Source of the DNA: Candidatus Roizmanbacteria bacterium
Lineage (GTDB): Bacteria; Patescibacteriota; Microgenomatia; UBA1406
Length of the DNA stretch: 64,000 nt
Assembly (NCBI GenBank): GCA_024654535.1
Contig: JANLHL010000007.1
Location: 2,395-66,394 of the forward strand
Reading direction: 5' to 3'
Part shown: positions 1 to 39,119 of the stretch, piece after piece
How positions within the stretch are numbered: the first letter of the stretch is position 1
How the letters are laid out: every line of letters starts with the position of its first letter
The notes under the pieces: model-generated
The model's input: only the letters and a program-made list of their open reading frames with translations
What the model was told of the DNA's origin: nothing
Databases searched by the model: none
Program-made: the position numbers and the translations under genes

Positions 1-16
1 CTTCCGCCATTATATG

Positions 17-93
17 TTTGAACTTAAGGTTTTAATTGACATTTGACATTGGATATTAGCGCTTTATTTGATATTTGATATTGGATATTTGGC
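17..93. repeat. Composite intergenic repeat, right-arm copy
   Basis: TTTGAAC..GACATTTGACATTGGATATT..TTTGATATTTGATATTGGATATTTGG, ending about 55 nt before the promoter of gene 161-2131. Confidence 0.8.
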
Positions 94-3472: not shown

Positions 3473-4789
3473 CTATGATTTCGGTTCAACGAGCCTGCGC
3501 ACTGCTACCATAAAGGCAGCTTCCTTGAGCGAAACGTGTGATTTCTTCGCCTGTTCCCAAACCGCCAAAGCCGACTCCTCAAGAAGGTCTTGCATTTTTT
3601 TGTTTACCTTTGCTTCGCTCCAAACAGTCCCCTTCATTCCCTGTACCCACTCAAAGTAAGAAACAACAACGCCTCCAGCATTTGCAAGCACGTCTGGAAT
3701 AACGTAAATGCCCCTCTTTTGCAATATGGGATAGGCTTCTTTGGCAATGGGGCCATTGGCCATCTCAACAACTATTTTTGCCTGAATTTTATGCGCATTC
3801 TTTTCTGTTATGACATTTTCAAGGGCTGCAGGAACCAATATATCGACCGGTAACTCCAATAATTGTTCATTGGTTATGACTTTTCCTTCGTTGATATCAC
3901 ACACCCCACCAGAACAATAACAACCAGCAAGCGTGCCCTGCTTTTTTTTGCATCCCATCACCAGAGGAATGTCTAACGGCTCAAAGTGCTTACCTGCATT
4001 ATTTAACTTTGCATTTTTTACTATTCCACCCTTACTATCTGATACTGCGACAACATCGAAGCCTTCTTCAACGGCAATTTTCGCAAAATAATATCCAACA
4101 TTACCAAAACCTTGTACTGCAACCGTTAACTTTGCATTGCCTGCCATAACTTTAGTGAAGGTAGGATTTTTATTTTTTAGTTCTTTACCTAATTTTGAAA
4201 GCAACGCTTTCAGAACGATCACTCCCCCTCTACCGGTTGCTTCTGTTCTTCCAAGACTTCCACCTTTTTCGACTGGTTTACCGGTAAACGTTGCAGGAGC
4301 AGCTTGACCAGCCAACTTCTCATATTCATCAAGCATCCATTGCATGATAAGTGGGTTTGTATTTACGTCTGGGGCTGGTACATCTACTCGTGGTCCTATA
4401 ACGGGAAAAAGTGCCCGTACATATGAACGTGAAAGCTGCTCAAGTTCTTTCTTCGAAAGCTCCTTTGGATCGACGATTATCCCACCCTTTGCCCCACCAA
4501 ATGGTATGCCAGCCACTGCACATTTGATACTCATAAGAGTAGAGAGTGCAAGCACTTCTTCGCGAGACACTTGCGGATGAAATCGAATGCCACCCTTATA
4601 TGGCCCTCGCCTGTTATTGTGCTGGCTTCGATATCCAGTAAATACACGTTCACCTGTTTTGGTAGGAATGCTCACTTTCACCTCGATCACCCTATTGGGT
4701 TGAAGTAAAGTATCAATAACTTGTGCACTGTAACCTAACTTTTTTCCGGCCTCTTGTACTATATTTCGAGCAGTTTCAAGCATATCCAT
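3473..4789 (-). CDS. gdh: Glutamate dehydrogenase (Glu/Leu/Phe/Val dehydrogenase family)
   Basis: 438 aa. Motifs GGIRFHP, catalytic K-box GIPFGGAKGGI and Rossmann GFGNVG. Confidence 0.85.
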   Translation of the reverse strand: MDMLETARNIVQEAGKKLGYSAQVIDTLLQPNRVIEVKVSIPTKTGERVFTGYRSQHNNRRGPYKGGIRFHPQVSREEVLALSTLMSIKCAVAGIPFGGAKGGIIVDPKELSKKELEQLSRSYVRALFPVIGPRVDVPAPDVNTNPLIMQWMLDEYEKLAGQAAPATFTGKPVEKGGSLGRTEATGRGGVIVLKALLSKLGKELKNKNPTFTKVMAGNAKLTVAVQGFGNVGYYFAKIAVEEGFDVVAVSDSKGGIVKNAKLNNAGKHFEPLDIPLVMGCKKKQGTLAGCYCSGGVCDINEGKVITNEQLLELPVDILVPAALENVITEKNAHKIQAKIVVEMANGPIAKEAYPILQKRGIYVIPDVLANAGGVVVSYFEWVQGMKGTVWSEAKVNKKMQDLLEESALAVWEQAKKSHVSLKEAAFMVAVRRLVEPKS

Positions 4790-4812
4790 TCTGTTTAATT
4801 TAAAATTATTAA

Positions 4813-5853
4813 TTAAAAAATTTCGTTAAGGTATCGCTCAATCTCAAGTTCGGCCGCTACACCCATGCCAACGGCAGTTGCAGCTTGACGATACGTATGA
4901 TCAACACAGTCTCCTGCTGCAAATACACCAGTAAGGCATGTCGCTGATGCATACTCAAAATTGAAATTCAGATCGGTTGAAGAACCATTGCCCTTCGATG
5001 ATCTTGCATAACGTAAAGCTTCTTGTGAACTCGTTACTATGTACCCTTTTTTGTCGAGTACTACGGCTGAATCTCGTAAAAAATCTGTTGCTGGCTTATG
5101 TCCAATGGCAACAAAAATGCCATCAAGTTTCAATACTTCTCTTTTAGGGCTAACGCTATCCACCGACTGCAATCGAATACCTTCAACTTTTTCATCCCCA
5201 ATAACTTCTGATACGGTAGTATTCCAAATCACTTCAATCTTTTCATGTTTCAAGACACGATCTGCCATTATTTTCGATGCACGAAAAGCACTTCGTCTAT
5301 GAATGACGTAAACTTTTTTTGCAAATGTGGTCAAGGTAAGTGCTTCTTCCATGGCGCTATCTCCTCCACCTATCACTGCGACAGTCTTATCTCTGAAAAA
5401 AAATCCATCGCAGGTTGCACACGCACTAACACCTCGTCCACGTAGGCGTTGTTCTGAATCTAATCCCATCCAAATGGCGTCTGCCCCAGTTGCTAAGAGC
5501 ACACTATGCGCTTGAAAGGTTTGTTTGTCAGTCTTTATTCTATAGGTTCTAGGTGTCTTATTCGTCTTATTTTCAGCAGGCTCTATACCGATCACATTTT
5601 CCTGGATGAATTTCGTATCAAAGCGCTTTGCCTGCTCTCTAAATTGAGCAATGAGTTCTGGCCCTTGGATTCCCTTTGCAAAACCGGGATAGTTTTCAAC
5701 TTCAGTCGTAAGCATGAGCTGTCCTCCCGATGGCACCCCCTCTATAACGAGTGGGTCAAGCCCTGCTCGTCCTGCATAAATTGCTGCAGCCAAACCGGCA
5801 GGACCACCTCCAACGATGATAATGTTTTGAATTGTCGATTGATGTTTTTCCAT
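4813..5853 (-). CDS. trxB: Thioredoxin-disulfide reductase
   Basis: FAD motif VGGGPAGLAAA, redox-active CATCDG, NADPH motif GGGDSAMEEA. Start MEKHQ is preferred because GGGAGG lies 10 nt upstream, inside the end of the preceding gene. Confidence 0.9.
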   Translation of the reverse strand: MEKHQSTIQNIIIVGGGPAGLAAAIYAGRAGLDPLVIEGVPSGGQLMLTTEVENYPGFAKGIQGPELIAQFREQAKRFDTKFIQENVIGIEPAENKTNKTPRTYRIKTDKQTFQAHSVLLATGADAIWMGLDSEQRLRGRGVSACATCDGFFFRDKTVAVIGGGDSAMEEALTLTTFAKKVYVIHRRSAFRASKIMADRVLKHEKIEVIWNTTVSEVIGDEKVEGIRLQSVDSVSPKREVLKLDGIFVAIGHKPATDFLRDSAVVLDKKGYIVTSSQEALRYARSSKGNGSSTDLNFNFEYASATCLTGVFAAGDCVDHTYRQAATAVGMGVAAELEIERYLNEIF

Positions 5854-5857
5854 ACTA

Positions 5858-6124
5858 TTACATCCTCCCAACTTCTTTTAATACTGTCTCCAATATTTTC
5901 TTATGTTCAGGAGCTACTGAGCAGAGTTCACTACGAGCAATTTCAATACCCACGTTCTGCACAGCAGCTTTTATGGCGTTAATCTGGAGTAAAATATCCT
6001 TACAGTTCCTTTTCTGTTCAAGCATGTTATTGATGCCTTTCAATTGACCAATAATACGATTAATACGCTTTGCGAGAATAGTTTGTTTTTGTATACCCAT
6101 ACCCCCCAATGGTATACCACGCAT
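5858..6124 (-). CDS. CsoR/RcnR/FrmR-family (DUF156) metal- or redox-sensing transcriptional repressor
   Basis: 88 aa, all-helical. RINRIIGQLKGI..M.....C.DILLQI.A....L matches the family signature, including the conserved Cys. Lies 4 nt upstream of trxB. Confidence 0.7.
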   Translation of the reverse strand: MRGIPLGGMGIQKQTILAKRINRIIGQLKGINNMLEQKRNCKDILLQINAIKAAVQNVGIEIARSELCSVAPEHKKILETVLKEVGRM

Positions 6125-6139
6125 AATAATAAGTCAAGT

Positions 6140-7465
6140 CTATCCCTGTTTCAGTTGTGCTAGAAACGTTTTGTTGTCTTTGGTTTTTCGCATTTTATCA
6201 ATCAAAGAGACCAATCGTTCATCCTCGCCCAAGAGAAGCAACATATGTCGAAGGGTTGCAATTTTTGAGAAATCGTCTTTACTCAACAATAATTCGTCAT
6301 GTCGCGTACCTGATTTCTCTACGTTTATAGCTGGATATATGCGTCGCTCCGCCATACGTCTATCTAAGTGCAACTCCATATTGCCAGTTCCCTTAAATTC
6401 TTCATAAATAAGGTCATCCATACGTGAACCTGTATCAATAAGCGCAGTGCCGATAATAGTAAGACTACCACCGCCCTCACAATTGCGCGCTGCTCCTAAA
6501 AAGCGTTTGGCAGGATATAGCGCTGCAGGATCAAATCCACCTGAGAGTGTTTTTCCCGAAGGTCCAACACTGAGGTTGTATGCCCGAGCTAACCGTGTAA
6601 TTGAATCGAGAATGATAACAACGTCTCGACCCATCTCAACTAATCGTTTCGCCCGCTCAAGCCCCAGTTCTGCTACCTTCGTTTGGTGCTCAGGCGATTC
6701 GTCAAAATTAGACGCAACAACTTCTCCTTGAATTGAACGACTCATATCGGTTACTTCTTCAGGCCGTTCACCAATAAGCGCTGCAATAATATGTACATCT
6801 GGGAAATTCTTCGTAATACCGGCTGCTATTTCTTTTAGCACCGTTGTCTTCCCAGCTTTTGGTGGAGAAACGACTAACCCACGTTGACCAAAACCAATTG
6901 GAGAGAATAAATCTATGATTCTATTTGATAATGCAGTCGAATCATACTCAAGCACAACGTGCTTCTCGGGATAGATAGATGTTAAGTCGTCAAAATTACC
7001 CCGTTCTACAAATCCAGCCTTAGGTTCTGTCCCATTGATTAACGTAATTTTCAAAAGCCCATGGTACCGTTCATTTTGTTTCGGAGGACGAGCAAGTCCG
7101 TTGACAAGATCTCCTTGGCGCAAACGAAATTTTCTAATCTGTGACATAGACACATATACATCATCATTTGATGGAGCAAATGTTGGTCTTAAAAATCCGT
7201 AACTCGTGTTCACAATGTCTAGGAATCCATGCACTTCAAATGACTGTTTTAAGTCGTCCTGAATACGTTGTTCAAACACCGGAGGTTGAGCAGTTGAATC
7301 GGAAACCATATGTACTGCCGCAGGTTCTGGGGCAGGCTCTGGGGCAGGCTCAGGTTCAGAAACAGCCGCGGAAACTGGCTTTTCCTGTTGAGGGGTTGTA
7401 ATGAATGTACTGACATCCAGAGCTTCATCTGAAGAATCTGGTATTTTTTTTACGCGTGTCACCAT
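6140..7465 (-). CDS. rho: Transcription termination factor Rho with P/E/A-rich N-terminal extension
   Basis: Walker A SPPKAGKTT and the Rho-specific RNA-binding and ATPase core (GFGFLRP-like YGFLRP, IIGTALIDTGSRMD). N-terminal EPEPAPEPAPEPAA is encoded by 12-nt tandem DNA repeats near 7320-7365. Confidence 0.95.
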   Translation of the reverse strand: MVTRVKKIPDSSDEALDVSTFITTPQQEKPVSAAVSEPEPAPEPAPEPAAVHMVSDSTAQPPVFEQRIQDDLKQSFEVHGFLDIVNTSYGFLRPTFAPSNDDVYVSMSQIRKFRLRQGDLVNGLARPPKQNERYHGLLKITLINGTEPKAGFVERGNFDDLTSIYPEKHVVLEYDSTALSNRIIDLFSPIGFGQRGLVVSPPKAGKTTVLKEIAAGITKNFPDVHIIAALIGERPEEVTDMSRSIQGEVVASNFDESPEHQTKVAELGLERAKRLVEMGRDVVIILDSITRLARAYNLSVGPSGKTLSGGFDPAALYPAKRFLGAARNCEGGGSLTIIGTALIDTGSRMDDLIYEEFKGTGNMELHLDRRMAERRIYPAINVEKSGTRHDELLLSKDDFSKIATLRHMLLLLGEDERLVSLIDKMRKTKDNKTFLAQLKQG

Positions 7466-7546
7466 GGAGAAAATAATAATTTATAAAAAACGAAATTAAC
7501 CTCGATATACAAAAAGGAAATAATTTACTTTTGAGTTCAAAATACC

Positions 7547-7742
7547 GCTACTATAAAGGTGTTTCACATTGATTTTTTCCCATTCTTGGGAAATGGGAAG
7601 GACTGAACTTCCGCGTTCATGCAGACTGAACGTGGCGAATCTCAGTACCTCATAGTTCCATTCTTCCTAAGAGAGAGTGGAACGTACCCTTTATTTTGTT
7701 GTATAGGAAAATATTTCAATGATCGTCACCCTTTATAGTAGC
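7547..7742 (-). ncRNA. Candidate structured RNA or rho leader domain (6S-like rod or attenuator; class unknown)
   Basis: 15-bp closing helix GCTACTATAAAGG(G)TG formed by 7547-7561 and 7727-7742. It encloses three strong hairpins (7577-7599, 7611-7635, 7655-7683). Minus-strand promoter TTGACA (7771-7776), 16 nt, TAAACT (7749-7754) predicts a 5' end at about 7742. The domain ends 81 nt before the rho ATG. Confidence 0.4.
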
Positions 7743-7807
7743 AAGTATAGTTTAGCAAAATTCTCATGCATGTCAACCACCATTGTCGTATATATATACG
7801 ACAATGG

Positions 7808-8010
7808 AATATCCAAGTTCAAATATCCAATGACAAACCCGCCTGCCCGCTTCGAAGCGAGGCGAGCCGGCGAGGCAGGTGAATGCCAAAACTCAAGTTT
7901 TAAAGTTAGACAGTAAGAATTTGACATAGGGATTTGGAGCTTCACTTGTCATTGGGACTTTGTCATTCGACATTACTTGGTTATGGATATTTGATATTGG
8001 ATATTGGAGT
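7808..8010. repeat. Composite intergenic repeat with embedded 41-nt GC-rich module
   Basis: Starts AATATCCAAGTTCAAATATCCAATG, carries the GC module at 7839-7879, and ends GATATTTGATATTGGATATTGG. Confidence 0.9.
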
Positions 8011-8031
8011 TTCCTGCTATATACTTCCCCT

Positions 8032-8607
8032 ATGGCATTTGCACGATTATTAAGAAAAGGAGCTGTTAAAAAAGAGACAGAGAAACAGCAAGATAAATTT
8101 GTACTTATTTTAGATAATGTCTACGATACATTTAATGTTGGTGGTATGTACCGTATTGCCGACGCATCTGGGATACAAAAAATATATCACTGCGGTGATA
8201 CGCCGATACCTATTGAAAACGAAGTAGTGAATAACAAAATAGCACGTGCTTCAGTCGGCTTATACCAATATATAGCCTGGGAACACCACGATAAGACAGA
8301 ACAACTAGTAGATACCCTTAAACAACACGGTTATACAATAATTGCTCTTGAACAAGACACACGGTCAATACCGTTTGATCAATGTAGTGTAATCAATACT
8401 CCAATTGCGCTTATTGCTGGAAATGAAACATTTGGAGTAGATAAACAAGTAATAGACAAAGCTGATGTTGTGCTAGAGCTACCTATGTTTGGGATCAATA
8501 AATCGGTGAATGTTGTAGTCGCAACGGGGATAGTTGCCTACCATTTAAGAACACAGCTTCAGAAAAGTGAAAAGTGTAAAACGCAAAGTTACCGTTTAAA
8601 GACTTGA
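8032..8607 (+). CDS. SpoU/TrmH-family RNA 2'-O-methyltransferase
   Basis: Motifs IALIAGNETFGV and LELPMFGINKSVNVVVATGIVAY (SPOUT knot). The ATG at 8032 is 6 nt after TATACT (8020-8025). The upstream part of ORF 7960-8607 is translated repeat (DIGYW). Confidence 0.8.
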   Translation: MAFARLLRKGAVKKETEKQQDKFVLILDNVYDTFNVGGMYRIADASGIQKIYHCGDTPIPIENEVVNNKIARASVGLYQYIAWEHHDKTEQLVDTLKQHGYTIIALEQDTRSIPFDQCSVINTPIALIAGNETFGVDKQVIDKADVVLELPMFGINKSVNVVVATGIVAYHLRTQLQKSEKCKTQSYRLKT

Positions 8608-8625
8608 AAATCGAAAGGCTGTTGT

Positions 8626-11600
8626 TTAATTTTTTTCTTTTTCGTCTTCCTCTATATTCATGCTCATTTCTTGAGCTTTCGGTGCAGATTCGGCTTGAGT
8701 ACGGTCAACGTCAATAAATTCTTCTTGCGACTGTGCTTGTAGTCGAGTCTTAACCGCAGACTCTCGCATCATCATCTCATTTACTTCCTTTGCAGCAGCT
8801 CGTTTTGCTTTTAAGTAGACAGCTACATCGGTTACCGACATATTTGCCAACATGAAGAAAGGAATGATATCTGCAACCTGTTGCAATCCTTCTGCTCTGA
8901 CGTCCTCATCTTCGGATACTATCTTATTCAGCACATTTTCAATGTCGATAATGTCTTTATGAACCCAATCTTCACGAGTTTTAATTGTCTCAGAAACGGG
9001 GACCTCACCATGTAAATAGTGATTAATCCACATTTGTTTAATCTCTTCGTATTCGTCAACAGAGAGTGAGTCCTCTTCAGAAATAAGATCATCGATATCT
9101 ATGTGGGCACCCAAAGACATTTGGGCAGGAATACGAGTAGACTTCTTTCTCCCCTTCTTATCCAATACGGTGAGTAGTATATCTCTCATCTTTTCTACCT
9201 CAATATGTTCATTTGAGGATATTTTTTGAATAATACTTTCTTTATTCCCTCCATGTATCTCAACTAACATGCTTTTCAGAATTTGAGAAACAACTGACGT
9301 TGACAATGATGTGTCGTGAGCTAAGTGTTCTACCATTTGTACCGGAGGTTGTGCAACCATAGTTGGAACCAACTGCATCAGTTGTGAAATTTTTTCTTGA
9401 GATACATTGTACTGTCGAGAAAAATTTTCTATCAGAATTTTATCTTTGCTCATTTGATTCACTAAAGCCGTGATAATACTTTGCATTTGTTCTGTATTCA
9501 TGGTCGATTGTTTTGTTGCCAATGGTTGTTGTTGGGGAGAAGCAAATGACAATGAAGAGAGGTTGTTTACCAATGCTTGTGCGTGTTGCGTATCGACTCC
9601 TGCTATCTTGGCGACGGTTTCAATGAGCGCGTGATCCGTCTTTGTTTTCTCTGCGAATGAGCTGTACACATTGTTCAATACACTCTGGACTGCAATGGTA
9701 GAAAGTTGTGTTTTGTCGCTCATGCGAGACACAAGAGATTCACTCGTATCGGTGGAGTGTGTTGACAATGCTTCAGTCAGAATACTCGTGACGACTTCTT
9801 TTGATACCTGTTGCGTGTGTGCTGTTTTCTCTACAAGGTCCTCTTGTGCAAGGGCAACCTTAGACACTGCACTCAACAATGGAACAATGCTTTCTTGTGC
9901 TATTTGTGTTTGTGCAGAAAGATAAGTTGCCAATGGTTGTTGTTGGGGAGAAGAGGAAAGCAATGTTGCAAAATTACTCATTGCAGATGAAACGTCATGT
10001 TGTGTTGTGTTCGTCTGACGTGCTATCTCTTCTATGAGTGAAGTCGCTACTGATTCTTTTTCAACTTCACTCATGACAGATGAAAGTACACGTTCGACAA
10101 CTTCTGAAGCAACGTTGGACTGTTTAGAAATTTGAGTAACTAATCCTTCTGTCGAGTTTTGGGCAGTAGTAGAGGAAATCTGCGACAACACTTGAGAAAC
10201 TTCATCATGAGTTGCGCTGGCACTACTCATAATGTTATCCATCGACTGATTTGACGACGTAATCAAATGTACAATTTCTTGTATGCTCCTGTTCGCCTGT
10301 TCTCGTTCTGAAGAGGTTTGTTGAACAGATGAATCCGTGACACTATTTTTTTGGCTTTGCACTGATGATAGCACGCTCGCTACAGCAGTCAGCTTGTCAG
10401 TAGAAATTTTTGTTGCATCACTTTGCGTCTGTATACTCTGAACAGATTTCAAACTATCATGGAGATGTGAAAAGATAGACGTAGAGATAGACTGCACAGC
10501 TTGTGTGGTCATGTTTTGCTCTTTTGCTACCGCTGCAAGCATCGTCTGCGCAGGTTCGGTTATGTGCTGAGCTATACTTTGAATAACTGCCTGGGTTTTT
10601 TCCGATGTAAAATCTTTTTCGTGTGCGCTTCTTTCCACTTGACTATTTGAAGACTTTGAAAGCGCAGTAAATAATTCTTTCTGGTTTTTTTCTGAAACGT
10701 TCTGAGAAACTAAGATGGATGAAAGCGAACTGGTTTGTGACTGAAGCTCACTCATGAAACGCGCTGTTGTGGTTATGAATTGAGTTATTGTTTTGTTGTC
10801 TACACCAATGGTTTGGGCAATTGTTTGTAGCATTTTTTCTGTTTCATGAGTACTCTCGAGTACCGATGAAACAGATTCGAGTATGCGAGTTACTGTCTCT
10901 TGTGTCGTCTGGGCATTCTTACTGACCACATCCATAGCCTGGGCTATGGGCGAGCTTGCGACTGACGGCAATGAAGTGAGTACCTTCTCTACTGTTTCAT
11001 GCGATGTCGTTGAAGATTGCGATACCTTTTCAATAAACGATTTCTCAGACGACATATTCGAAAGCGCAGTAAGTGCAGATTCAATAGTTTGTTTACTCTC
11101 TTTTGTTTCGTTGATAAGTATATGTTCTATATTTGAATTTGAAGACGAATCTGTCTCTCGTAATTTCTCAAGAACATTTATGACATGATCTGATGTAACA
11201 GAAGCCATCTTAGAAATTTTCTCTACAACATTTTTATCGATAATACTTGCCGCAGATTGCAGTATACGAGACGTAATCGAAGAAGAAGTCGAACTTGTAC
11301 CGCTCACTTTTTCGATGTATTCTCGTACGTTCGATGTTTGTGCTGACTTCGGTAACGCATTTAGTACATTTTGAACCATACTTGCCGTGGATTGAGTATT
11401 TTTCGCTATTTGTTCAAGGTAGTCAGTATGATTTTTTAGCTCACTCACCCACGCTTCAAGCACACGCGTCACCTGGTCGGATTTCATGGTAGTAGCCTTT
11501 GCGATAGCCTGAGATACCGTAGTCACTGCTGGCCTATCTTGTGCAAGCATACGTATGTGTTCTCGTACTCCAACACTCGTTGCTGTTGTCGCTGCTAAAA

Positions 11601-13218
11601 TACGTTGAGCCAGTTGGTCACCCTGCGTCGCACGCTGAGAAATTTCAGTTTTTAGACGTACAAAAGCCGCCCTATCTGTCGTGCTTTCTGCAGACATGGG
11701 GTTACTCATATATCCAGAAAGTTCATGATAGTACTGGCTTTTCTCTTTGCTCGTTTCGAAACGAGCTATATCACGTAAGTTCTCGACACGTACATCCAAT
11801 TTTTGTGCAAGTTTTGCTGTTTCAACATTTTTGATACTTGTATTTTCTGGCACTTTTGCAACTATAGAATCTTTTATTTTCATCTTATCTTGCATCGAAA
11901 TAACCGCTGGCCTCCTAAGTGCTTCCTCTCGAGTCTGCGATGGGGACGGCTGTGGACTTGGTGCAATACCGCCACCATTGAGCATATTCATGAGAATGTT
12001 TCGCATTGCATAAATACCGTCACAACAATAATCTCTAAAAATGCGAAGCAGCCACCACGGCAAAATAATAACCGTCCAAAGCATAATGAGTGCTATCACA
12101 TACTCTGCAAATGTATCAATGTATCCCGAAGTATTGATAGGTCCAGATTCAGATAGAGCAGCACCTAACCCCCCAGCCCTCTGTGCAGGCCCTCCATACA
12201 GTATATTTATAGCAAGTGGATAGACTACTCGTTGCGATGCGTCGCATGTAGCAGATGTTGCAGCCATATACGCCGGTTCGCACGACTGTTTAGCGCGCGT
12301 AAAATCAAATCCAAATGGGATGCCGCTTGCCCATATTTTCGCCATAGCTCCCAAGAAAAGTGCAAATAACGGCCCGTAAAAAGCCCATTGGAAAAATACT
12401 CCTATCCAAATCCATCCGATATTACGAATAAATACAAAGGGCATAAGTATGGCCAAAAAAGGCGCGACAACAAGCAGAAACCATAATACTATTTTACGAA
12501 GCAGTAACATAATACCCATGACAAAATAGGTGAATGAAGTAAAATTGATCAAAAAAAGCGACGAACGAGCACTTTCTTCAAATTGCATACCAATTCTTTT
12601 GTAACCTTGGAACGTAATATACCCCTCCTCCGATTGTTGTAGAGCATGAGCTGCATCTGTGTTTCCGGTTACAAAGAAAATTTTAAACAACTGATCACCG
12701 TTCAATATTTTTATAAAAAATTGCATGATAATATCGGTAAGTTGAATAAGGGCAAGTATGATGAGGTATGAAAATACTATATATAAGAGCCATATAGCTG
12801 TCTTATACAAAATAGGTACGACATCCACTTTAAATGACACGTCTTTTTTCCGAGCTATCAATACCCCTATACCCATAAACGCAACCACTATCAAAATGAG
12901 AAAGAGCGCTGTTCCAGCAGAAACGAGCCATATTTGCCGAAACACAGGATGGTTATCTATAGATGGATGATCTAATACCCAGTTGATAAACTGCCGCGCT
13001 CGCTCTCCGCGCTTGCCTGCAACGGTCACTTCTTGGTCTGGCACCCACTCATTCGATGTCCATGGAATTGTCGGCGTCGGAGAAGGTTGTGCATAGACTG
13101 GTTGTACGTGAACAATAGAAACAAAAAATGACGCAACGACAAAAATAGCGAGCAATAGAGTGAAGTATTTTTGACCGTTGCCTTGTTTGACGTTGGATAT
13201 TGGATATTTATTTGACAT
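8626..13218 (-). CDS. Giant membrane protein: signal peptide, VirB6/TrbL-like polytopic domain, ~1000-aa S/T/Q-rich helical-motif tail, acidic C-terminus
   Basis: 1530 aa. N-terminal signal peptide (LLLAIFVVASFFVSIVHVQPVYAQ). At least 6 TM helices in aa 95-400. At least 20 copies of an amphipathic motif of the type [ST]xxx[VI]xx[VI]Lxx[LV]. The VirB6-like call rests on topology and genomic context only. Confidence 0.5.
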   Translation of the reverse strand: MSNKYPISNVKQGNGQKYFTLLLAIFVVASFFVSIVHVQPVYAQPSPTPTIPWTSNEWVPDQEVTVAGKRGERARQFINWVLDHPSIDNHPVFRQIWLVSAGTALFLILIVVAFMGIGVLIARKKDVSFKVDVVPILYKTAIWLLYIVFSYLIILALIQLTDIIMQFFIKILNGDQLFKIFFVTGNTDAAHALQQSEEGYITFQGYKRIGMQFEESARSSLFLINFTSFTYFVMGIMLLLRKIVLWFLLVVAPFLAILMPFVFIRNIGWIWIGVFFQWAFYGPLFALFLGAMAKIWASGIPFGFDFTRAKQSCEPAYMAATSATCDASQRVVYPLAINILYGGPAQRAGGLGAALSESGPINTSGYIDTFAEYVIALIMLWTVIILPWWLLRIFRDYCCDGIYAMRNILMNMLNGGGIAPSPQPSPSQTREEALRRPAVISMQDKMKIKDSIVAKVPENTSIKNVETAKLAQKLDVRVENLRDIARFETSKEKSQYYHELSGYMSNPMSAESTTDRAAFVRLKTEISQRATQGDQLAQRILAATTATSVGVREHIRMLAQDRPAVTTVSQAIAKATTMKSDQVTRVLEAWVSELKNHTDYLEQIAKNTQSTASMVQNVLNALPKSAQTSNVREYIEKVSGTSSTSSSITSRILQSAASIIDKNVVEKISKMASVTSDHVINVLEKLRETDSSSNSNIEHILINETKESKQTIESALTALSNMSSEKSFIEKVSQSSTTSHETVEKVLTSLPSVASSPIAQAMDVVSKNAQTTQETVTRILESVSSVLESTHETEKMLQTIAQTIGVDNKTITQFITTTARFMSELQSQTSSLSSILVSQNVSEKNQKELFTALSKSSNSQVERSAHEKDFTSEKTQAVIQSIAQHITEPAQTMLAAVAKEQNMTTQAVQSISTSIFSHLHDSLKSVQSIQTQSDATKISTDKLTAVASVLSSVQSQKNSVTDSSVQQTSSEREQANRSIQEIVHLITSSNQSMDNIMSSASATHDEVSQVLSQISSTTAQNSTEGLVTQISKQSNVASEVVERVLSSVMSEVEKESVATSLIEEIARQTNTTQHDVSSAMSNFATLLSSSPQQQPLATYLSAQTQIAQESIVPLLSAVSKVALAQEDLVEKTAHTQQVSKEVVTSILTEALSTHSTDTSESLVSRMSDKTQLSTIAVQSVLNNVYSSFAEKTKTDHALIETVAKIAGVDTQHAQALVNNLSSLSFASPQQQPLATKQSTMNTEQMQSIITALVNQMSKDKILIENFSRQYNVSQEKISQLMQLVPTMVAQPPVQMVEHLAHDTSLSTSVVSQILKSMLVEIHGGNKESIIQKISSNEHIEVEKMRDILLTVLDKKGRKKSTRIPAQMSLGAHIDIDDLISEEDSLSVDEYEEIKQMWINHYLHGEVPVSETIKTREDWVHKDIIDIENVLNKIVSEDEDVRAEGLQQVADIIPFFMLANMSVTDVAVYLKAKRAAAKEVNEMMMRESAVKTRLQAQSQEEFIDVDRTQAESAPKAQEMSMNIEEDEKEKN

Positions 13219-38931: not shown

Positions 38932-38954
38932 CCACTGTTGCATTGCACAACGGT

Positions 38955-39119
38955 GGAATATCCAAGTTCAAATATCCAATGTCAAAGCCGCCTGCCCGCT
39001 TCGACGCGAGGCGAGCCGGCGAGGCAGGTAAAGTGTCAATTCCCAATGATAAATGTCTGAATTGGAAATTGGAACTTTGACATTTGTTGGATATTGGTTA
39101 TTGGGTATTGGATATTTCC
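38955..39119. repeat. Composite intergenic repeat with second copy of the 41-nt GC-rich module
   Basis: GGAATATCCAAGTTCAAATATCCAATG, then the GC module at 38988-39028, then ...GGAACTTTGACATTTGTTGGATATTGGTTATTGGGTATTGGATATTTCC. Lies between two convergent genes. Confidence 0.9.

Follow-up and report, generated by a model that had tools for sequence, protein, structure and literature searches.

In canonical 6S RNA, a bulged closing stem is combined with an apical stem and with a large central bulge on the 5' side, opposite which lies a hairpin (PMC8414754). The product RNA (pRNA) of Bacillus subtilis 6S-1 starts at nucleotide (nt) 40, and a key part in the release of Escherichia coli 6S is played by a hairpin that the 3' bubble forms with the P2 3' strand (PMC8876501). 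Ms1 RNA of actinobacteria is a 6S-like RNA that binds the core RNA polymerase (PMC9130861). Here we describe a 196-nt structured RNA encoded directly upstream of rho on the minus strand of a 64,000-nt stretch of a Candidatus Roizmanbacteria genome (contig JANLHL010000007.1), referred to in its entirety as the window. The parts of the RNA and its surroundings are listed in Table 1.

Bacteria of the Candidate Phyla Radiation (CPR) have tiny genomes, and to our knowledge almost no regulatory RNAs have been characterised in them. The 6S RNA of E. coli (ssrS) is co-transcribed with ygfA, and the known leaders of rho act through an unstructured, C-rich sequence onto which Rho loads. An initial annotation of the window had pointed to a domain with paired ends upstream of rho, and had suggested either a 6S RNA or an attenuator-like leader. 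Following this up, we find that the segment belongs to a previously uncatalogued and undescribed family of structured RNAs. The best reading of its sequence features is that it is the gene for a discrete, highly expressed RNA of ~180-220 nt, more than a rho leader. The RNA may well be a divergent 6S-type RNA that binds RNA polymerase and that is co-located, and often co-transcribed, with rho, an assignment that we hold tentatively, being somewhat short of convinced. Our literature searches yielded no paper linking 6S RNA with CPR, Patescibacteria or Microgenomates.

A structured RNA directly upstream of rho

The minimum free energy of the 196-nt RNA was -66.2 kcal/mol, compared with -39.1 +/- 3.9 kcal/mol for 200 dinucleotide shuffles (z = -6.97), none of which was as good; the fold exceeds chance. 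The predicted structure comprises a rod formed by nt 1-40 with nt 160-196, a central bubble of 13 and 11 nt (nt 41-53 and nt 149-159) and a forked apical domain (nt 54-148). The closing rod measures ~40 bp, with helices P1, P1b and P2 together occupying ~40 nt on each strand. A closing helix of 15 bp had been proposed, and the ends indeed pair: the arms 7547-7559 and 7730-7742 are 100% complementary over 13 nt, but the extension to 15 bp carries one bulged G. The extensions CAUUGA/UCAAUG and UUUUCC/GGAAAA hold and show compensatory changes. Two of the internal hairpins were recovered as annotated, one of 8 bp (7577-7584 with 7592-7599, 100% complementary), which corresponds to a conserved 3'-bubble hairpin (7577-7599 region), and one of 9 bp (7611-7619 with 7627-7635, 89% complementary). 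The third, annotated with 11 bp, is present as 10 nt at 90% complementarity (7655-7664 with 7674-7683) and is conserved as hairpin A.

We assign the RNA to the minus strand because of its G-U pairs and because the family models described below scored much lower on the reverse strand. The segment 7547-7742 scored 103.6 bits with model R1 and 129.5 bits with model R2, and was the sole match in the window. The only open reading frames overlapping the region were unsupported mechanical calls of 65 and 70 amino acids, and the pattern of conservation tracks the helices. The U-rich tail that follows P1 is a possible intrinsic termination or 3'-end signal; the terminator scan was silent on it because the P1 helix is long-range. 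A search of the whole window against Rfam 15 at the gathering threshold returned two tRNAs only, and no 6S RNA. Relaxing the threshold to E <= 10 gave nothing meaningful on 7300-8000, nor on 11 loci carrying family members, where only tRNAs and chance hits were obtained.

Table 1. Coordinates of the structured RNA, its promoter and the downstream gene in the window
Feature	Window position	Strand	RNA position	Description
Structured RNA, 196 nt	7547..7742	(-)	nt 1-196	nt 1 = 7742, nt 196 = 7547
P1, 5' strand	7727..7742	(-)	nt 1-16	GCUACUAUAAAGGGUG; pairs with 7547-7561
P1, 3' strand	7547..7561	(-)	nt 182-196	CACCUUUAUAGUAGC
P2 proximal, 5' strand	7716..7721	(-)	nt 22-27	CAUUGA; partner UCAAUG, nt 171-176, 7567-7572
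P2 distal, 5' strand	7703..7711	(-)	nt 32-40	UUUUCCUAU; conserved U-run and C block; putative pRNA template; partner nt 160-168
P2 distal, 3' strand	7573..7583	(-)	nt 160-170	AUGGGAAAAAA
Central bubble, 5' side	7690..7702	(-)	nt 41-53	ACAACAAAAUAAA; includes conserved (U)A(A)CAA junction
P3, 5' strand	7687..7689	(-)	nt 54-56	GGG; partner CCC, nt 146-148, 7595-7597; closes forked apical domain
Hairpin A	7655..7683	(-)	nt 60-88	GUUCCA...UGGAAC
Stem B	7599..7651	(-)	nt 92-144	Long irregular apical hairpin; conserved base (A)UGAGG / CCUC, variable tip
Central bubble, 3' side, and alternative hairpin	7576..7594	(-)	nt 149-167	UUUCCCA with UGGGAAA; rivals P2 distal for GGGAAA
U-rich tail	7538..7546	(-)		GGUAUUUUG; immediately after P1
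Sigma-70-type promoter	7749..7776	(-)		-35 TTGACA 7776-7771, 16-nt spacer ending TG, -10 TAAACT 7754-7749
rho, 441 aa	6140..7465	(-)		Pfam Rho_RNA_bind and ATP-synt_ab; invariably linked downstream gene
A/U-rich spacer to rho start codon	7466..7537	(-)		Contains TTTATAAATT 22 nt before ATG

Homologues in Microgenomates

We fetched 80 species-level Microgenomates rho loci for comparison (labelled L001 and so on). A single-sequence nhmmer search with the window RNA reached only L001, and a hidden Markov model (HMM) of six sequences, followed by covariance models, was needed to detect further members. The HMM and then covariance model R1 enlarged the set to 15 loci, and contigs encoding the closest Rho proteins contributed another eight. 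A scan of metagenomes for the DNA pattern, performed independently of rho, gave 28 hits, including six true members with two new sequences. All six lie upstream of rho and most duplicate known loci; with true hits this few and mostly duplicates, that scan does not settle whether the RNA occurs away from rho.

The family now contains 25 different sequences (24 loci besides the window), each encoded immediately upstream of rho and in its orientation, with lengths of 172-221 nt. Comparison of the rho-upstream regions of relatives, a check proposed with the initial annotation, thus found the domain conserved with covariation at 24 other loci. At L001 (rho 74% identical), a clear homologue starts right after TTGACA-17-TAGACT and ends 28 nt before the rho ATG, with a change from A-U to G-C in the terminal helix. 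The members fall into three subtypes. The R-type, to which the window belongs (n = 10), has GCUACUAUAAAG / CUUUAUAGUAGC as P1, the V-type (n = 10 loci) has GAUCCUCC / GGAGGAUC, and the G-type is found in Gottesmanbacteria-like genomes. In a neighbour-joining tree of Rho, the subtypes correspond to three Microgenomates clades, within which the RNA is present in 100% of cases. Locus L065 ends at a contig edge yet keeps the V-type 3' end. The ~65 remaining Microgenomates rho loci, including the sister clade of the G-type genomes, lack the element in the 1 kb preceding rho, and a regular-expression search combined with a search for a promoter plus paired ends found no further members in these other 65 loci.

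Some observations on individual loci are recorded here. At L022 (Levyibacteriota), a different 184-nt segment with paired ends (2049-2232; -0.34 kcal/mol per nt) follows a perfect TTGACA-17-TATAAT ~0.8 kb upstream of rho, and its architecture is unrelated to that of the present family. In the two closest relatives by rho, L109 (92% identity) and L110 (85%), the RNAs are cut off because the contigs end 78 and 91 nt upstream of rho. The L109 contig (1-78) starts within the 3' strand of P1 (AAACUUUAUAGAUC), and the L110 fragment comprises 1-91; the structured or repeat-rich region may break assemblies here. The V-type RNA (e.g., L002 2610-2820 and L004 1034-1228) starts with GAUCCUCCUU, which resembles the 3' tail of 16S rRNA (anti-Shine-Dalgarno), and ends with AAGGAGG(A/G)UC, a perfect Shine-Dalgarno-like sequence. 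These two ends pair with each other as P1, and no conserved open reading frame follows.

Covariation supports the predicted helices

RNAalifold applied to the 10 R-type sequences gave a consensus consisting of P1, a short P1b, P2 proximal (CAUUG/CAAUG), P2 distal (UUUUCCUAU / AUGGGAAAA), P3 (GGGU/ACCC), hairpin A and the base of stem B. Across the 43 pairs of this alignment, 91.4% of the cells were paired, compared with 44-50% when the partners were slid by 1-3 columns. Changes on both sides were found in 18 of the 43 pairs, against 4-9 in the slid controls, and not one of 500 shuffles matched the observed paired percentage, the number of pairs changed on both sides or the covariation score.

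The compensatory changes are distributed over the predicted helices P1, P2, P3, hairpin A and stem B, each of which they support. P1 was paired in 96.7% of the cells among the 10 R-type sequences, and four of its pairs had changed on both sides (e.g., A-U to G-C at pair 7). Two of the five pairs of P2 proximal had changed on both sides, with CAUUG/CAAUG replaced by GCCUU/AAGGC or GCUUUG/CAAAGC. P2 distal was paired in 90% of the cells and showed a change from U-A to C-G at column 41/176; its U-run and C block are kept in 25/25 homologues. Hairpin A had all four consensus pairs changed on both sides within the R-type and was recovered independently in the G-type. All five pairs at the base of stem B had changed on both sides within the R-type, while the tip of this stem is not conserved. 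The middle pair of P3 in the alignment of all types is G-C in 21 sequences and U-A in one (GUG/CAC, L004), and L003 has GGGC/GCCC. Between P2 and P3, nt 41-53 and 149-159 are unpaired in the predicted consensus structures, and the (U)A(A)CAA junction on the 5' side of the bubble is conserved in all three subtypes; in the G-type the 5' strand may form a small local helix.

We extended the comparison beyond the R-type. Model R2, trained on the R-type alone, picked up G- and V-type members with E values of 1.5e-9 to 0.08 and gave no further hits in 620 kb. The alignment of all types had 88.7% of the cells paired and changes on both sides in 35 of 43 pairs, against 13-18 in slid controls, figures that lean towards structure because this alignment was fitted to the model. 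V- and G-types aligned separately each gave P1 and P2.

Two features of the segment, a terminal inverted repeat of 13-15 nt spanning a ~196-bp unit and a dispersed repeat family nearby in the window, could also be attributed to a miniature inverted-repeat transposable element (MITE) or other selfish repeat, or to a chance palindrome. This explanation is highly improbable and was rejected. The segment is single-copy in the window and occurs once per locus, at a fixed place relative to rho and the promoter, and a search with GCTACTATAAAGG found no other exact copy and just four sites with 1-2 mismatches. Moreover, the G-U pairs and compensatory changes keep RNA pairing on one strand only.

A conserved bistable element

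Two segments can each pair with G(n)AAAA, the 3' strand of P2 distal: UUUUC(n) in the 5' strand of P2 and UUUC(n) in the 3' bubble. The alternative hairpin within the 3' bubble was paired in 91.2% of the cells, with a change from C-G to U-A at column 167/173, and each of the two alternative pairings has a compensatory change. The number of G residues in G(n)AAAA (1, 2, 3 or 4) tracks the number of C residues in both partners across subtypes. R-type members have three G residues, G-type members four, and most V-type members one or two (L019 has three). Minimum free energy folds contained P2 distal in 17/25 sequences and the local 3'-bubble hairpin in 6/25, the window being among the six. We then made 16 nt of the 5' strand unavailable in silico, as a product RNA would do. 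With the template blocked, pairing potential alone placed the 3'-bubble hairpin in 14/25 sequences, including 10/10 of the R-type; in the other sequences the freed strand paired with U/C-rich partners in the 5' bubble or elsewhere.

The initial annotation had proposed a different switch, in which GTTCA would pair with either of two copies of GACTGAAC. The copies themselves were located by the repeat finder (7601-7608 and 7624-7631), and together with the 9-bp hairpin they are carried by the variable tip of stem B. This arrangement is specific to the window and common to no relative, and we rejected it as a conserved feature.

Promoter, spacer and transcription unit

The promoter elements given in the initial annotation (TTGACA, 16 nt, TAAACT) were found where it had placed them, and form the top promoter-like site of 7000-8700 in a promoter scan, with 10 of 12 positions matching and a TG extension. 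The -10 hexamer is separated by 6 nt from G7742, the first nucleotide of the RNA. The expectation that transcription starts at the first base of the closing helix agrees with the family as a whole: in 24/25 homologues, 6-7 nt separate the end of TTGAC(A/T)-16..18-TAnnnT from the first paired base, and a perfect TTGACA/TATAAT promoter is present in 9/10 V-type loci. A U-rich stretch occurs within the 14 nt after the 3' end of P1 in most homologues (~20/25, as read off the list of tails). The exact pairing of the first with the last nucleotide, the near-consensus promoter, the U-rich tail and the separate rho promoter found in one clade (below) together point to a discrete, abundant and stable RNA.

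Several observations concern the DNA upstream of this promoter. On its upstream side, the -35 hexamer is separated by 3 nt from a perfect 28-bp palindrome (7780-7807; CCATTGTCGTATAT/ATATACGACAATGG), which is absent from the equivalent place in L001 and might serve as an operator or as a bidirectional element. A dispersed 23-nt repeat, ATATCCAAGTTCAAATATCCAAT, has 16 copies at <=3 mismatches in 64 kb, where none would be expected; one is at 7809-7831, just upstream of the promoter, and the 15 others include those at 2161, 38958, 59204 and 62904. The repeat holds a direct repeat of TTGGATAT on the opposite strand, and a 76-nt stretch (7805-7880) consisting of the repeat and a GC-rich hairpin, CCCGCCTGCCCGCTTCGAAGCGAGGCGAGCCGG, recurs at 38954-39029 with 96% identity. 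The segment 7808-8000, flanked by inverted repeats (7813-7837 and 7959-8000), fills the gap between the RNA promoter and the start of a SpoU methylase gene and looks like a MITE-like insertion. At L001 the SpoU start directly adjoins the RNA promoter.

In the window (3473-8607), TrxB, CsoR-like and rho share the minus strand and are followed in order by the RNA and a divergently oriented SpoU gene, and the distance of 81 nt between the domain and the rho ATG (7465) is as annotated. The promoter scan of 7000-8700 detected no promoter-like site in the spacer 7466-7537, nor was a convincing separate rho promoter found in the spacers of other R- and V-type loci, so that rho at these loci probably depends on read-through. 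G-clade loci have an additional promoter (TTGACAA-N-TGATTAAAT) in the interval from the RNA to rho, and the sister clade of G has only that rho promoter, directly after a protein-coding gene and with no RNA. The conserved form of this promoter is TTGACAA-N15-17-TG(A/G)TTAAAT (spacers of L009, L033, L049, L027 and L060; L046, L075 and L078). Because of this separate promoter, and because the sister clade and ~65 of the 81 loci lack the element, rho does not need the RNA.

Alternatively, the RNA may be a cis-acting 5' leader that sets rho expression, either as an attenuator made up of the terminal helix and the U-tract, or as a domain that binds RNA polymerase, Rho, a factor or a ligand to control read-through. 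Such a leader would be comparable to riboswitch-controlled leaders or to those acting by processive antitermination (put, EAR). The RNA lies immediately upstream of rho on the same strand at 25/25 loci and in 6/6 true hits of the metagenome scan, and the RNA and rho are inverted as a unit relative to their CsoR/TrxB and SpoU neighbours, with both lying as an inverted block between CsoR and SpoU in L115-L118. The lack of a separate promoter in the R- and V-type spacers, the U-rich tract after P1 and the existence of a conserved bistable element are also in line with a leader, as are the G-poor spacers of several relatives, in which UUAC or GUUCAC tandem repeats are possible Rho loading sites. 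However, a rod of ~40 bp is too long and too stable for a regulated switch helix. The conserved switch touches neither P1 nor the U-tract, and therefore it is not a terminator/antiterminator arrangement and cannot toggle termination. The separate rho promoter of the G clade and the loci that lack the element likewise speak against a leader, and a first transcribed base that pairs exactly with the one just ahead of the U-tract is a typical trait of stand-alone, stable RNAs. Nor is the domain C-rich and unstructured like a Rho utilisation (rut) site: it contains 40 C and 39 G and is highly structured. Taken together, we regard a cis-acting leader as the chief competing reading, possible if rather doubtful.

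Further observations were made on the spacer and on rho itself. Tandem repeats of 7-8 nt occur just upstream of the rho start in relatives (TTACTAAN x4; TTAC(T/C)NN x8; AGTTCAC(T/C)), at L113 ~620-660, L114 ~1440-1500, L118 ~1460-1500 and L005 ~2480-2530. The tabulated spacers of relatives (L113, L114, L118 and others) are G-poor, with C ~1.3-2 times G, and these repeat-bearing spacers could be Rho loading sites for autoregulation; the spacer of the window has 9 C and 9 G and is without the tandem repeats. The motif TTTATAAATT (<=1 mismatch) is found 21-34 nt upstream of the rho ATG in 8/26 loci (window 7478-7487, L109, L110, L002, L003, L004, L014 and L035), where it might serve a short-leader rho transcript as a -10-like element, or act as an A/U-rich enhancer of translation. 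An obvious Shine-Dalgarno sequence was lacking at every rho start codon inspected. The window Rho has a low-complexity N-terminal extension (SEPEPAPEPAPEPAA; 7300-7400, codons ~22-55) that is variable or absent in relatives, and most tblastn matches to Rho begin at residue 64-78 or later. Beyond SpoU, the minus strand at 8626-13218 contains an open reading frame of 1530 amino acids with N-terminal membrane-like segments and a very long, repetitive region rich in Ser, Thr and Gln.

A possible 6S-type mechanism

We favour a 6S-type RNA because the conserved switch has no obvious role in attenuation, and because the overall layout and the competition for P2 match those of 6S RNA. The data show the promoter, both RNA ends, the helices with their covariation, the bistable pairing and the linkage to rho; from these features we infer binding of RNA polymerase, synthesis of a pRNA, release from the polymerase and an effect on rho. 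How the RNA is produced is largely evident from the sequence. A near-consensus sigma-70-type promoter belonging to the RNA itself drives its transcription, nt 1 opens the terminal helix, and the U-rich tract comes after the final nucleotide. In the window and wherever else rho lacks a separate promoter, its mRNA is probably supplied by read-through, much as E. coli ssrS is co-transcribed with ygfA. The RNA would act as a 6S-type mimic of an open promoter, in which the ~40-bp rod (P1-P2) takes the role of downstream duplex DNA and the apical domain that of upstream DNA. The 13/11-nt bubble would offer the template strand, in which the UUUUCC block comes after the conserved UA(A)CAA. Bound RNA polymerase holoenzyme would then copy a short pRNA from around C42 into the 5' strand of P2, with the predicted sequence 5'-GUAUAGGAAAAUAUUU..., complementary to nt ~42 down to 25. 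Copying would free the 3' strand GGGAAAA, which may snap onto UUUCCC of the 3' bubble and thereby bring about release from the polymerase.

A number of findings weigh against this proposal. No Rfam 6S model, nor any other Rfam family, matches the window or the 11 members searched, even at E <= 10, so that the suggestion of a 6S RNA in the initial annotation agrees with the architecture and the conserved alternative pairing but not with the existing models. The apical domain is forked, with hairpin A and stem B closed by P3 and supported by covariation, rather than a single irregular stem. The in-silico rearrangement was less uniform in the V- and G-types, with the 3'-bubble hairpin formed in only 4/15 sequences. 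Within the rho-upstream region, the RNA was seen in only ~16/81 species-level Microgenomates loci. It is also strictly linked to rho and inverted together with rho in L114-L118; a cis-element would look alike, and the tight linkage fits a cis-acting leader equally.

The lack of a match to 6S models or to any Rfam family may instead indicate a stable stand-alone small RNA unrelated to RNA polymerase, such as a protein sponge or scaffold, or a Y-RNA-like or Ms1-like RNA, which would simply neighbour rho and whose resemblance to 6S RNA would be convergent. A strong promoter of its own, paired ends and a U-rich tail would all be found in such an RNA, and the forked apical domain, with its conserved GGGUAA and AUGAGG junction nucleotides, is unlike 6S. 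Yet two features are specific to 6S RNAs, namely the dimensions of the rod, bubble and apical domain and the conserved rivalry of P2 with the 3'-bubble hairpin, and no gene for a partner protein other than Rho is consistently adjacent. We consider a stand-alone RNA of this kind improbable.

A broader proposal is that the family is an RNA class physically coupling two global controllers of transcription, either as a CPR-specific, polymerase-binding 6S-like RNA with a forked upstream arm that sets the level of Rho through its synthesis and read-through, or as a cis-element that, loaded onto the polymerase during transcription, carries it past Rho's own attenuation. We think this unlikely, though in either version an RNA coupling the control of RNA polymerase and Rho would be a regulatory circuit undescribed in any bacterium. 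If the RNA is a true 6S RNA, it would be a new structural variant, and the forked upstream arm and the fixed partnership with rho would broaden the 6S form; as a true rho leader, it would instead provide the first case of Rho synthesis being controlled by a structured element other than a rut site. As it stands, a family supported by covariation, with a near-consensus promoter and missed by Rfam, gives CPR bacteria a candidate global regulator of RNA polymerase, and the family model is usable for annotation.

Comparison with known systems

The put RNA of lambdoid phages and the EAR element of Bacillus resemble the window RNA in their position at the very 5' end of the transcript and in folding once made, and the window RNA could in principle likewise render RNA polymerase resistant to terminators that precede a gene. 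However, put and EAR RNAs are much smaller than the RNA of the window, their folds are different, and the family has no Rfam match. The autoregulatory leaders of rho in E. coli, Salmonella and B. subtilis share with the window RNA a position between the promoter and the rho start codon, and in the window rho probably needs read-through. They differ in that the window domain folds compactly into a rod and junction, with C and G in balance, and in that one clade has a separate rho promoter downstream of the RNA. Ms1 is similarly structured, with a 6S-like overall shape, missed by standard 6S models and limited to a single lineage, but there is no sequence or model match between the two, and Ms1 is ~300 nt long and not linked to rho.

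Compared with the 6S RNAs (E. coli SsrS, B. subtilis 6S-1, RF00013 and relatives), the family differs in having no significant match to the Rfam 6S models, in an apical domain built as a three-way junction (P3, hairpin A and stem B), in rho as its partner gene and in having been found only in some Microgenomates clades. The likeness extends over most of the remaining architecture. In an RNA of ~180-220 nt, a long and irregular closing stem joins the two ends, and the 5' strand of the predicted large central bubble lies ~40 nt from the 5' end, with the putative template start near nt 42. Also shared are an apical helical domain and a hairpin on the bubble's 3' side. The helix next to the bubble can give up its 3' strand to an alternative pairing with the 3' bubble, in the manner of the E. 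coli-type release hairpin (PMC8876501). Finally, the family has in common with 6S RNA a strong housekeeping-type promoter, together with conserved synteny and likely co-transcription with a downstream protein gene.

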